Translations under genes and position numbers: made by a program
DNA from: Parachlamydiales bacterium
GTDB taxonomy: Bacteria > Chlamydiota > Chlamydiia > Chlamydiales > Rhabdochlamydiaceae
Length of the DNA stretch: 64,000 nucleotides
Direction: 5' to 3'
NCBI GenBank assembly: GCA_963705295.1
Contig: OY970065.1
Location: 704,001 to 768,000, forward strand
Shown here: positions 24,120 through 29,808 of the stretch, in pieces
Layout: the number at the start of each line of letters is the position of its first letter
How positions within the stretch are numbered: position 1 is the stretch's first letter
Notes under the pieces: model-generated
Databases searched by the model: none
What the model was told of the DNA's origin: nothing
Seen by the model: the letters and a program-made list of their open reading frames with translations, nothing else

Positions 24120-25055
24120 ATGGTTTTTTTCCGGAGACTCATTTTGAAAAAGAAAATATTGGTTCTGCTGGCGATGAGCATGACAGTCTGTGCGGATGAT
24201 GAGATTGGGATTTTAATGAAAAAAGAAGCCACAGGACCAGTCAGGGAACCAAAAGAAAACCCCAACGAAGTTTGCTCGTTTTTGACGGTGAGACATATCG
24301 ATGCAGGCAGTGTCGGGTATGTGCATGGATATACGTCCTTGACGGGACTTGTTTTTCCTGTACCTCAGGAACAAGGAGCATGGGTTCGACCCTTTATCGA
24401 TTTGAGATTCCACGAGTTCAATGACAATCATCAGGCGGCCAATGCAGGAGCAGGAGTTCGGTTTGCACCTTATAGTATTGAAAAGGTGATCGGTCTGAAT
24501 GTCTACTATGATTATCGCAATAGCCACGACCACTACAATCAAGCCGGAATGGGATTTGAGTTTTTGGGCAAGCGGATGGACCTTCGGATCAATGGGTATC
24601 TTCCATTTGGAGAGAAAAAACATCGGATCGATCACTGCTCTCATAGATTTCCCGGCGATTTCTTTATTTCTCGAAGAAAATACGAGATCGCGCTGCGCGG
24701 CGGTGATTTAGAAGTAGGCGGCCTCATCATCAGAACTCGACCTGTCGATATTTATTCTGCCATCGGTCCTTATTATTATGGCGGTGATGTTTGCCGTCAT
24801 GTTTTCGGCGGCCGTTTTCGTCTCAATTTTAAATTCAGAAAATACGGTTTTGTCGAAGGAATCGTCACACACGATAATGTTTTTGAAACCAAAGTCCAGG
24901 GTATGGTGGGTCTAACATTCCCATTAGGATGTAAACGGATTGAAAACCGGTCTAGATCCCACCGAACTTTCCCTGAAGAAATCATGACCCAACCAGTACA
25001 AAGAGACGAAATCATCGTTCTCGACAAAAATTGTCGGTGGAGAGCGAATTTTTAA
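24120..25055 (+). CDS. Inverse autotransporter (intimin/invasin-type) beta-barrel domain protein without passenger
   Basis: Signal peptide; ANAGAGVR, IGLNVYYDY, QAGMGFEF, DLRINGYLP, LRGGDLEVG and terminal linker MTQPVQRDEIIVL; start codon uncertain. Confidence 0.75.
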   Translation: MVFFRRLILKKKILVLLAMSMTVCADDEIGILMKKEATGPVREPKENPNEVCSFLTVRHIDAGSVGYVHGYTSLTGLVFPVPQEQGAWVRPFIDLRFHEFNDNHQAANAGAGVRFAPYSIEKVIGLNVYYDYRNSHDHYNQAGMGFEFLGKRMDLRINGYLPFGEKKHRIDHCSHRFPGDFFISRRKYEIALRGGDLEVGGLIIRTRPVDIYSAIGPYYYGGDVCRHVFGGRFRLNFKFRKYGFVEGIVTHDNVFETKVQGMVGLTFPLGCKRIENRSRSHRTFPEEIMTQPVQRDEIIVLDKNCRWRANF

Positions 25056-25067
25056 ACGAGGACTTAT

Positions 25068-26278
25068 ATGAAAAACTTATGGCGACTTTTTTCTCTCATC
25101 ACCACTTTGATCATCTGTGCACCCACGCTAAGTGCCGATGATCACTCGTGCAAACCCCCTGAACAAGGACCACCAGGCCATCGCGGAAAAAAAGGTGAGC
25201 ATGGACAAAGAGGTAAAGAGGGAGAACAAGGAGAACGGGGAGAACACGGCCCCGAGGAGCCCAAGGAAACATGGGCCAAGCAGGTGCAACGGGGGCAACT
25301 GGGCCTAAAGGAACAACAGGTGCTGCAGGAGCCACGGGAGCTACTGGGCCTGCTGGATCGAGAGGAGCCACTGGACATAAAGGTGCTAAAGGAGCTACGG
25401 GAGCTAAAGGTGCGACGGGAGCCACTGGAGCTACCGGGCCTTGCTGTCCTGGACCTACGGGACCTTCAGGACCCACTGGGCCAATTGGACCTACTGGGGT
25501 GACTGGAGCAACAGGTACTGGAGCTACCGGCCCGATCGGTCCTACAGGGGCAACAGGACCTAGTGGCGGTGCTACAGGACCAACTGGACCCACAGGTCCT
25601 ACCGGACCTACAGGAGCGACTGGAGCAACAGGTACTGGAGCTACCGGTGCTACGGGACCAACTGGACCCACAGGTCCTACAGGACCAACTGGTCCAACGG
25701 GCCCTACTGGACCCACAGGTCCTACAGGACCCACGGGAGCTACAGGAACAGCCGGGGGAATCTTCAGTGGGGCTTCAATCGATACGCACCATGATTTCAA
25801 TGACCATACGGCTTATGGTTTAATCATACCTCAAAATCCCATCTACTTTACCGATATTGATAACGCATTTGGAACGGATATTGTTTTCGCAGGAACACCG
25901 GGCTCGCCGTCACCTTATATCCAACTGATGACGGCAGGAACTTATTTGGTTGACTACGGTGTCGTCACATCGTCAGCTCATCCGACAGCAGCGATCACGA
26001 TCAACGGTAATATTTTAGACGATACAATCATGGATCTAGGAAGTGGAACAGGCGCAGCACCGACAATTCCTTACTTAATCAAAATAGCAGCCGGTGATCT
26101 CGTCGTTTATCCTGGACCCACGCCACCTGCAGGAACCTATGCTCTGCTGGAAGTTATCAATGCGACACCGACACCGGGAGCGACAAACATCCACCTACAA
26201 ACAGTTCAGGGAACAACTAATAATATCACGGATTTCACATCTCCGTCAGCTTACATGACGATTTTGAGAGTCCATTGA
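25068..26278 (+). CDS. Secreted collagen-like protein (about 60 Gly-X-Y triplets, BclA/C1q-like C-terminal domain), frameshifted at C4 25250-25253
   Basis: Signal peptide and GXY run in ORF 25068; GXY register continues in ORF 25271..26278 if one C is added; C-terminal GTYLVDYGV beta-sandwich. Confidence 0.85.
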
Positions 26279-27425: not shown

Positions 27426-27444
27426 TATATTTCCGGATTTTTAG

Positions 27445-29808
27445 ATGATGTTCGGACTATTTTTTATTCTTCTATTTTTTTTTCAACTTGATGCTGAAGA
27501 AAAACCAAAAATCTGTCTGAATATGATTGTCAAAGATGAAAGTGCCGTGATCAAACGGTGTCTGGATTGTGTCAAACCGTATATCGATTATTGGGTCATT
27601 GTTGATACAGGGTCGAAAGATGGAACGCAAAAGATCATCAAAGACTATCTCAAAGGAATTCCTGGTGAGCTCTATGAAAGGGCATGGAGGAATTATGGAG
27701 ACAATCGAACGGAAGCACTCCATCTTGCCCGAGGAAAAGGAGATTATTTATTATTCATTGATGCCGATGATTTAATTGAGTTCGAAAAAGGATACAAACT
27801 CCCCGCATTGAAACACGACTTGTATAACATGTGGCGCGGACCGAAAGGTTACAGCTATATCAAACCTCAACTGGTGAAGAATAATCTACCTTGGGAATGG
27901 GTGGGGGTAACGCATGAATACCTCTCTTGCGGCCGGGGGTATTGGTCAGCGACTCTCGATCATGTCCGGTATGTGACCTTAGACGACAGCTCTTCTCGGG
28001 CACAAGGAGTAGCTAAGTTTTTGCGTAATGCCGAGCTTCTAGAAGAAGGGCTTAAGCAAGAACCTGGGAATACACGGTATGCTTTTTATTTGGGAGAAAG
28101 TTACCGCGATGCTTGTCTCAAAGCGAAGGCTCTTGTCGCTTATCAAAAACACACGCGCATGAAAGATGCTTGGGACCAAGAGGTTTTTTGGTCACTTTTC
28201 CGCATCGCTCATCTGCAGCAAGATCTTGGATTCCCCCTTGATACGGTTATCCAGAGTTTCTACAAAGCCCATCGCTACAGACCGCATCGGATTGAACCGA
28301 TCTACTTTCTCGCTGAAATTTACAACCAAGAGAGGAAATACGATTTAGCGTATGCATGCATCAAATCACGCGATTTTATTCCAAAACCTTCACAAAAAGA
28401 TGATATTTTCAATTTTGATTGGATCGAAGAGTATGGACTCTCTTTGCAACTCTCTATCTGTACCTATTACCTCGGTCATTATGAAGAGTCCCTCCGTGCT
28501 TGCGAACGGATTTTAGCAATGAAAGACATCCCCGATAATTTTAGAGAAGCAGCAAGTTTGAATAGGTCGTTTGCTTTAGAAAAATTAAAAGCTAAATCTC
28601 AAAATAAAAAGGAAGAAACCCTGGCTTCAGCCATAAAAAGGTATCATCAAGCCCTCAAAGAGAATCATGCTGCGGGAATCTACAATAGCCTCTTATCGAT
28701 TGCACGGGCAGAGGAAGACCTTCAGCTGAACTCAAGTGTTGTGAAAGCAGCTTATCAACGAGCAGAAAATGCCTGCCCATCTAAAGTAGAAGCCCTTTTT
28801 CACTTCATAAAATATCTTCGGAAAATTGGCCAAAATGAAGAGGCTTTTCAGGTAGCTGAACGGGCAAGAAAAATCGGTATGCTTGAAAAATTTGAAGAAG
28901 GGATTTTGTGGGAATATTCTCTGGCTGCATGGTCGATTGGGAAATTCCCAGAAGCAATCGACGCAAGTCGGTTGTTGCTCGCAATCCCAGGAATGTCCCA
29001 AGAATCTCAAGAGAGATTAAAGAAAAATATTTCATACTACAACGCGGGAGTTATCATTTTTGATTTCGCTCAAAAGAAATGGGGACCTGCGGCATGGGAA
29101 GGAGTAAAAACATCCGTTGTAAAAAAGAAAATATCTCCACAGAAAAAGCCCCAACTTCATATATGCACCACCGCTTCGCATAGAATTAAAAATCTCGATC
29201 AGCTGGTTAAATCAGCTGAATTTCAAAAAATCAAACTCGATATTGTCGGCTTAGGAGAGACTTTTTCTTTTGGAAAAAAATTGAGAGACTTTCATGAATA
29301 TGTGAAAAAGGTTCCGAAAGACGATGTTGTTTTATTTCTCGATGCTTATGACACCCTCCTTTTAGCTGATGAAAGGACAATTCTCGATCAATTTCTAAAG
29401 ATGGAAGTCCCGATCGTGGTTTCAGTAGAAACGAGTTGCCACCCGTTTCCTCATTTAATGCCGTACTATCCGGCAAGTCCAACGAAATTTAAGTACATTA
29501 ATTCTGGATCGTTTATCGGTTATGCACGAGATCTTCTGAAGATGTTCGAAGAGATGAGTCCGATTCCAGACGAGACGGATGATCAAGGACTGCTCACGGT
29601 GTTTTACCTCTACCACCCCGAAAGAATGAAGCTCGATTTTTTATGCGATCTCTTTTTGCCTTTATATCAAGTGGAGCAAGAAGAATTGGAATTAGATCCG
29701 AATAAAAAATGTGTCCGTTGTAAAACAACTTCGACCTTTCCGTGTGTCATCCATGGAAATGGAGCGAGTAAGGATTTATATCAATCGATTTATGATCAAC
29801 TATTCTAA
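27445..29808 (+). CDS. Fusion glycosyltransferase: GT2 + TPR + PLOD/LH3-like GT domain
   Basis: ICLNMIVKDE..VDTGSKDGT..FIDADD (GT2), TPR-like helices, then FLDAYD, INSGSFIGYA, DDQ, VIHGNG (PLOD GT-like). Confidence 0.82.
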   Translation: MMFGLFFILLFFFQLDAEEKPKICLNMIVKDESAVIKRCLDCVKPYIDYWVIVDTGSKDGTQKIIKDYLKGIPGELYERAWRNYGDNRTEALHLARGKGDYLLFIDADDLIEFEKGYKLPALKHDLYNMWRGPKGYSYIKPQLVKNNLPWEWVGVTHEYLSCGRGYWSATLDHVRYVTLDDSSSRAQGVAKFLRNAELLEEGLKQEPGNTRYAFYLGESYRDACLKAKALVAYQKHTRMKDAWDQEVFWSLFRIAHLQQDLGFPLDTVIQSFYKAHRYRPHRIEPIYFLAEIYNQERKYDLAYACIKSRDFIPKPSQKDDIFNFDWIEEYGLSLQLSICTYYLGHYEESLRACERILAMKDIPDNFREAASLNRSFALEKLKAKSQNKKEETLASAIKRYHQALKENHAAGIYNSLLSIARAEEDLQLNSSVVKAAYQRAENACPSKVEALFHFIKYLRKIGQNEEAFQVAERARKIGMLEKFEEGILWEYSLAAWSIGKFPEAIDASRLLLAIPGMSQESQERLKKNISYYNAGVIIFDFAQKKWGPAAWEGVKTSVVKKKISPQKKPQLHICTTASHRIKNLDQLVKSAEFQKIKLDIVGLGETFSFGKKLRDFHEYVKKVPKDDVVLFLDAYDTLLLADERTILDQFLKMEVPIVVSVETSCHPFPHLMPYYPASPTKFKYINSGSFIGYARDLLKMFEEMSPIPDETDDQGLLTVFYLYHPERMKLDFLCDLFLPLYQVEQEELELDPNKKCVRCKTTSTFPCVIHGNGASKDLYQSIYDQLF

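Follow-up and report, generated by a model that had tools for sequence, protein, structure and literature searches.

A barrel, collagen and glycosyltransferase locus in a Rhabdochlamydiaceae genome as a candidate system for a glycosylated surface fibre

Investigation of a 64,000-nucleotide stretch of DNA (the window; contig OY970065.1, positions 704,001 to 768,000 of the forward strand, assembly GCA_963705295.1) from a Parachlamydiales bacterium of the Rhabdochlamydiaceae revealed an array of four co-oriented genes on the + strand encoding an inverse-autotransporter barrel, a collagen-like protein, a YVTN propeller and a glycosyltransferase (Table 1). The intergenic gaps are 12, 31 and 19 bp, and a convergent dnaA lies 7 bp from the end of the array. 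An original prediction, made from the sequence alone, had described this arrangement and the identities of the barrel, the propeller and the dual glycosyltransferase, all of which profile searches bore out; the signal peptides that it ascribed to all four proteins are borne out as leader patterns, judged by eye from the N-termini. A promoter and terminator scan returned 14 and 10 sites, respectively, with 10.6 and 6.5 in shuffled sequence. The genome is a single contig of 2.13 Mb and 94.7% complete; one true collagen was found in it, the propeller and the glycosyltransferase are single-copy, and two further barrel genes are present elsewhere. A second barrel gene spans both contig ends (C1 1-478 and 2131187-2131909), which suggests a circular chromosome.

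Table 1. Features of the four-gene array, with positions within the window.
Feature	Position	Strand	Evidence
Passenger-less inverse-autotransporter barrel, 311 aa: leader, 12-strand barrel and one extra hairpin, linker ending C-x-W-x-x-N-F	24120..25055	+	PF11924, profile matches, AlphaFold2, Foldseek
Collagen gene, 5' frame: signal-peptide-like leader, C-x-x-P-x-Q-GPPG start, ten charged GXY triplets	25068..25253	+	Reading frames
Collagen gene, 3' frame: Thr-rich GAT/GPT stalk with GPCCP, then predicted BclA-C/C1q-type head (~25760-26275)	25247..26278	+	Triplet count, head-family profile
YVTN beta-propeller, 371 aa, signal-peptide-like leader; accessory	26310..27425	+	TIGR02276 x8
Glycosyltransferase, N-terminal part: leader, GT2 (DADD at 106-109), TPR repeats; SgtA/GmaR/SunS-like	27445..28600	+	
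Glycosyltransferase, C-terminal PLOD/LH3/R699-type GT domain (D633-A-Y-D636, HGNG at 770); accessory fusion	29146..29808	+	PF25342, E 9e-36

Regarding the barrel, the gene product matches PF11924 (E 5e-10), and a profile of 35 short barrels matches invasin (4e1t, E 1e-9) and intimin. The AlphaFold2 model (predicted local distance difference test score 90) has 12 barrel strands, an additional hairpin and a short helix and ends at a last strand; invasin and intimin beta-domains take the top Foldseek ranks (4e1t, E 3.5e-10, template modelling scores 0.62/0.71). The N-terminal, intimin/invasin-homologous 12-strand barrel of type Ve secretion is present, while there is no C-terminal passenger domain, the protein stopping at the linker strand; the passenger-bearing relatives carry beta-helices. 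By analogy with the invasin and intimin beta-domains that it matches, the lumen would be plugged by the protein's own linker. Among 150 barrel representatives, 59 stop at the linker, 75 extend past it and 16 could not be assigned to either group, and a Cys stands in the linker strand of 42 of the 59 short barrels versus 4 of the 75 long ones. Some passenger-less barrels have very long N-terminal extensions of 250-820 aa (L046:6345-9332, P0225, P0226, P0346), some of them basic and of low complexity, which match no Pfam family.

The collagen comprises 63 triplets across two reading frames, with Thr in the Y position of 34 and Lys in that of 5; at the collagen rise of 2.8 A per residue (PMC12357932), this gives a predicted stalk length of ~55 nm. 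Thr occupies 72% of the Y positions in 36 related collagens, as in the GXT repeat of BclA-type proteins, and Lys 1.6%. Of 34 collagens scored, 23 have a Cys ahead of the first triplet, as in the C-x-x-P-x-Q-GPPG start of the window collagen; several of those without one are truncated at a contig end. A profile of 26 collagen heads matches F-BclA-CTD (9h38, so identified in PMC12357932; E 4e-13) and BclA (3tyj, E 7e-10), and these matches predict a BclA-C/C1q-type fold for the head; PF18573 was detected in 15 of the 26 members of the head family, the window member alone giving E 0.008, which is below the cut-off. No NCBIfam exosporium leader model matched the 5' frame or three intact relatives, which have a signal-peptide-like start instead. 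GPCCP was considered as a conserved knot of the family and rejected, GxCCP being present in only 3 of the 36 related collagens. Very long chlamydial collagens, of up to 601 triplets, were seen at loci L062, L067 and L043, among them a protein of 1792 aa in which a large non-collagen N-terminal region precedes 337 triplets.

The glycosyltransferase gene (27445-29808) encodes a protein of 787 aa with a GT2 domain (E 1e-11) and a GT_PLOD domain. The GT2-TPR part is closest to GmaR and SunS and has the layout of SgtA and GmaR, a GT2 domain with DxD followed by TPR repeats. SgtA, which has the same GT-A and TPR layout, adds beta-O-GlcNAc to threonines of the BclA3 stalk (PMC7157674), and the pairing of such an enzyme with a BclA-type head, proposed earlier, holds by homology. 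The C-terminal domain matches mimivirus R699 (9dyt, E 1e-19) and human LH3 (6wfv, E 6e-19) and has equivalents of the key R699 residues D83, Y85, D86 and K222 (PMC12279948), so that the Mn- and UDP-binding residues are in place; no accessory or lysyl-hydroxylase domains are fused to it, and the protein ends after the GT domain. This PLOD/R699 kinship had been overlooked when the enzyme was correctly described as dual, and so had the oddity of its export leader. Stand-alone PLOD-type glycosyltransferases of ~245-280 aa with their own leaders occur in several chlamydial families (L149-L158), none of them beside a collagen.

Unlike SgtA, the enzyme carries a leader: by our own reading, the sgtA primer (PMC7157674) translates to M-I-T-I-S-L-C-M-I, which starts directly at the motif. 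A hydrophobic stretch, scored by hydropathy only, lies in the 32-residue segment that precedes the first GT motif in 47 of 53 GT2-TPR proteins, the window enzyme also having one, compared with 107 of 921 internal windows. Among the eight PF00535 proteins of this genome, six lack a hydrophobic leader and begin at the motif or close to it, and leaders are present on the window enzyme and a GT92-like one. Since enzymes that use nucleotide sugars bear leaders here, the sequences point to GT2-TPR glycosylation outside the cytoplasm, where it may have a parallel in Chlamydia trachomatis, described as secreting glycogen enzymes into the inclusion and using imported UDP-glucose there (PMC4829429). No match to the nucleotide-sugar transporter family PF04142 was obtained in this genome, nor in the controls, and three EamA genes of this genome score above the cut-off. 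Unlinked GT92-, GT10- and GT25-like genes and methyltransferase genes (C1 ~838-842, 936-940, 996-1000, 379, 1668 and 1817-1821 kb), most with signal-peptide-like leaders, are likely an exported glycan toolkit for the same fibre.

The collagen is not a single open reading frame: the leader and the charged block run from 25068 in one frame, the Thr-rich stalk and the head (25247-26278) lie in another, and the frame switches at a C4 run (25250-25253). The components assigned to the protein earlier, namely the charged GXY block, the GAT/GPT stalk, GPCCP and the head, are all present, while their description as one continuous gene missed this frameshift. The frameshift is probably an assembly or sequencing error. 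With proteins of relatives as queries, frame changes came to light in 7 of the 228 conserved genes examined in this genome, including EF-G, S7, L10 and ClpX (two of the seven, rpoB and a SNF2 helicase, rest on weaker alignments), and rsmH in the window (33468-34417) is split at a T9 run, because of which the assembly is taken to carry indel errors. The collagen break also lies at a homopolymer, its halves are otherwise clean, the other three genes are intact, and in a genome of the same genus (G066) the orthologous collagen, 43% identical in the head, is unbroken. Separate from the question of mechanism, the less probable view, that the collagen is a true pseudogene in a decaying operon, takes the frameshift at face value; it draws on the measured error rate, which by simple arithmetic gives a gene of this size only about a 3-5% chance of a frameshift, and on the ankyrin gene upstream of the barrel, which is truly broken by two small inverted-repeat insertions, so that local decay is real and counts against an intact system. 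For these two reasons the artefact reading is rated no higher than probable. The inserted element (22852-23012 and 23240-23411), of 161-188 bp with terminal repeats of ~30 bp, looks like a miniature inverted-repeat transposable element and has 19 copies in the genome. Other split genes seen in this genome are possible assembly errors.

Regarding distribution, homologs were sought in 301 genomes of the phylum (300 for the propeller), and matches were obtained for the glycosyltransferase in 134, the barrel in 140, Pfam Collagen in 117, GT_PLOD in 14 and the propeller in 94. In the 30 small genomes of family f4, which is probably the Chlamydiaceae, the corresponding numbers were zero for the glycosyltransferase, the barrel and GT_PLOD and one for collagen. 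GT2-TPR enzymes were detected in 96 of the 117 collagen genomes (50 expected, after five genomes with a match read as PLOD-only had been dropped from this count) and barrels in 89 (54 expected), associations whose p-values are overstated as related genomes are not independent. In 40 loci taken from the top glycosyltransferase matches, collagen was found in 18, the barrel in 13, GT92 in nine and YVTN in none.

The linkage depends on the type of barrel. Among the 150 listed of 341 barrel matches, 28 rows had frames of <=450 aa (27 places), 22 of which had not already been fetched through GT2, and these were compared with 20 rows of >=600 aa, the best from each of 20 genomes; six rows of intermediate length (472-580 aa) were left out. 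A collagen lies within ~10 kb of 10 of the 22 passenger-less barrels versus none of the 20 passenger-bearing ones (Fisher p 6e-4, uncorrected for kinship); GT2 was found at eight versus none, and any of collagen, GT2 or GT92 at 16 versus none, in 322 and 347 kb of sequence, respectively. Each of the ten collagens points in the same direction as its barrel; six are adjacent to it, three are separated from it by one glycosyltransferase gene and one lies 5.6 kb away. A tree of 63 barrels places the window barrel in a supported group of 15 passenger-less barrels (four fetched through GT2, one the window itself), of which 14 have collagen or glycosyltransferase neighbours, and the same linkage is seen in other short-barrel branches.

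Individual loci bear this out. In G042, a genome of another family, the barrel, the collagen, a GT2-TPR and a GT2-TPR-PLOD enzyme lie in one direction, and G180 follows the gene order common to the window and G042. In G044 a short barrel of 24% identity stands directly upstream of a co-oriented collagen; it was missed by the single-protein query and found by a profile search of five collagen genomes that this query had missed. Single-protein pattern scans of genome and metagenome contigs gave no match, and a search with a seven-row barrel alignment recovered mostly loci already known. Six metagenomic long-barrel loci had no collagen, and the short barrel L179 was followed by one. Barrel, BclA-type collagen and GT2-TPR are thus supported as a conserved trio across several chlamydial families, while the four-gene combination of the original prediction was not found as a complete operon elsewhere in the Chlamydiota loci examined.

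The propeller, which consists of eight TIGR02276 YVTN repeats (E 2e-88), had been proposed as tip or partner of the fibre. The loci do not support it as a core part, and as an obligatory tip it was rejected: none of the 62 loci selected through GT2 or through a passenger-less barrel has a YVTN gene, and collagen is present in only one of eight YVTN loci. That one is in G066; the orthologous collagen there follows two YVTN genes, and a GT2-TPR and the closest barrel, of 60% identity, are found ~17 kb away. The propeller is an interchangeable accessory, and the PLOD domain is a variable add-on. In G180 the slot after the collagen is taken by a member of an unrelated leader-bearing family of ~530 aa (L034:6125-7723, L031, L035, L094, L100), often in tandem and with no Pfam or NCBIfam match, which is present at 12 loci with a collagen, a glycosyltransferase or a short barrel and absent from all 20 long-barrel loci; to judge from Atlas leads, it likely combines a propeller with FN3.

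These observations would fit a glycosylated, BclA-like trimeric surface fibre that receives its sugars outside the cytoplasm and docks on the barrel, a model given a probability of about 55% as a whole. To judge from the leader patterns, all four proteins would leave the cytoplasm via Sec. The GT2-TPR enzyme, by comparison with SgtA and GmaR, would then modify threonines at Y positions with a first sugar, probably GlcNAc or Glc, and the PLOD-type domain here, or GT92, GT25, GT10 and methyltransferases elsewhere, may extend or cap it, the sugar donor coming either from the cytoplasm by export or from the host inclusion. As in BclA, three chains would trimerise from the BclA-C head into the stalk. 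In the last and weakest step, the barrel, its lumen closed by the linker, would reside in the outer membrane and bind the C-x-x-P-x-Q-GPPG start of the collagen through its Cys-bearing outer strand, perhaps by a disulfide, in a role like that of BxpB/ExsF for BclA; the conserved cysteines of the two proteins make such docking possible. The most specific form of the model, with the barrel as a disulfide socket in the outer membrane for a separate collagen trimer, stepwise extracytoplasmic O-glycosylation that includes a PLOD relative, and a spore-like hairy nap on a Gram-negative envelope, is rather doubtful.

Besides the kinship of the sampled genomes and the hydropathy scoring of the leaders, several points weigh against this model. 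No barrel match was obtained by the single query in 28 of the 117 collagen genomes, and in four genomes with BclA-C heads (G270, G214, G194 and G228, 94-97% complete) none was found even by profile, which is the main result against an obligatory barrel. Collagen is lacking at 12 of the 22 passenger-less barrel loci, several of which are cut by contig ends, and no barrel-collagen fusion was found among 90 longer homologues and the 150 barrel representatives. The cysteines of the barrels may pair with each other. The collagen loci are general glycan islands, so the linkage could reflect shared regulation. A looser leader test over 55 residues, positive for 14 of 15 GT92, 13 of 13 GT10/GT2 and 4 of 4 FkbM proteins, was also positive for 90 of 177 control open reading frames and is weak.

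Two other roles for the barrel have to be weighed. It might be a ZirT-like translocator by which glycosylated collagen chains, and perhaps the propeller, cross the outer membrane unfolded, the chains trimerising outside. The gene layout and the co-orientation in all ten cases match such a system, and ZirT secretes its co-encoded partner ZirS (PMC2270342; PMC4943183). This reading is nevertheless unlikely: the barrel lacks the C-terminal Ig domains with which substrates are bound in the ZirT model, nothing following the linker strand, a folded C1q-type trimer is too wide for a 12-strand lumen, and the four collagen genomes with no detectable barrel argue against an obligatory pore. Still less likely is the release of collagen and glycosyltransferases into the inclusion lumen, where a matrix would be built from host nucleotide sugars and the barrel would merely be a co-regulated surface gene. 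Such release would agree with the luminal glycogen synthesis of C. trachomatis, with the leaders on most glycan enzymes of these loci and with the collagen carriers in which the barrel was not detected; it leaves unexplained why only passenger-less barrels lie beside collagens, in several branches of the barrel tree, and why both partners have cysteines. Docking on the barrel is favoured over both because collagens exist in genomes with no detectable barrel and because the lumen is likely plugged. Finally, animal- or mimivirus-style glucosyl-galactosyl-hydroxylysine made by the PLOD domain, which the R699-equivalent residues and the five Y-position lysines of the window collagen might suggest, is very improbable and was rejected, as Y positions are Lys-poor in the relatives, with no Lys in the G042 collagen next to a PLOD fusion, collagen is present in only one of 13 PLOD loci, fused accessory or hydroxylase domains are absent, and in this genome PF03171 gave no match (a search that matched only 1 of 14 controls) and one PF13640 oxygenase is unlinked.

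Collagen, barrel and GT2-TPR homologs each occur in ~40-47% of the 301 genomes and are nearly missing from family f4, for which reason environmental chlamydiae may have a widespread surface structure that has so far escaped notice. The model offers a testable role for the unexplained barrel-only inverse autotransporters and suggests that nucleotide-sugar glycosyltransferases modify a defined protein substrate outside the bacterial cytoplasm. A PLOD/R699-type enzyme is, moreover, found here next to a bacterial collagen. Chlamydiae, like giant viruses, often live in protists. On the spore-like elementary body, a glycosylated nap could control attachment to the host as well as clumping and persistence, and, if the disulfide socket and the exported glycosylation are true, they would represent a new route of surface anchoring and a Golgi-like glycosylation line in bacteria.

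Elsewhere in the window, a lantibiotic dehydratase and a LanC cyclase (1602-5371, - strand) form a class I lanthipeptide-like cluster in a chlamydia, and the window's third copy of the inverted-repeat element (5435-5596) lies near these genes. A protein with a ubiquitin carboxyl-terminal hydrolase domain (48227-49849, + strand; PF00443, E 3e-19) is a possible host-directed deubiquitinase.

No paper on chlamydial collagens or on a module of barrel, collagen and GT2-TPR was found in a search that mostly lay outside subscription journals; in their accessible parts, a review of prokaryotic collagens (PMC8968730) contains no 'chlamyd' and a survey of chlamydial outer membranes (PMC2811131) no 'collagen' or 'glycosyl'. 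Chlamydial homologues of the barrel are noted in PMC4943183, which in its accessible part names no partners for them.

Compared with known systems, the locus is most like BclA or F-BclA with SgtA-type GT2-TPR enzymes in Bacillus and Clostridioides, with which it shares the GXT stalk, the BclA-C/C1q-type head and the adjacent GT-A and TPR enzyme; it differs in its diderm host, in the leaders on both collagen and enzyme, in the lack of an exosporium leader match and in the outer-membrane barrel that stands in the position of BxpB/ExsF. With ZirT/ZirS/ZirU and SinH of Salmonella (PMC4943183) it has in common an intimin/invasin-type barrel and co-encoded, co-oriented partners with leaders, assigned here by pattern, and ZirT illustrates that a barrel can serve partners in trans, albeit with Ig domains (PMC2270342; PMC4943183). 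Here neither the barrel nor its partners have Ig-fold domains, the partners are a collagen and glycosyltransferases, and the hosts are Chlamydiota, not Gammaproteobacteria. The second glycosyltransferase domain is homologous to those of PLOD3/LH3 and R699 and retains the Mn-binding DxxD and the UDP-contact residues, but it is fused to GT2-TPR instead of accessory or hydroxylase domains and stands beside Lys-poor collagens, while in other chlamydiae it is mostly stand-alone with its own leader. Luminal glycogen synthesis of C. trachomatis (PMC4829429) likewise places a nucleotide-sugar enzyme outside the bacterial cytoplasm, with type III secretion and a glucan product there and Sec-type leaders and a likely protein acceptor here. 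Each part thus works like a known system and yet departs from it in at least one defining feature, and the locus is therefore regarded as a variant of BclA/SgtA combined with two-partner inverse autotransporters of the ZirT type.

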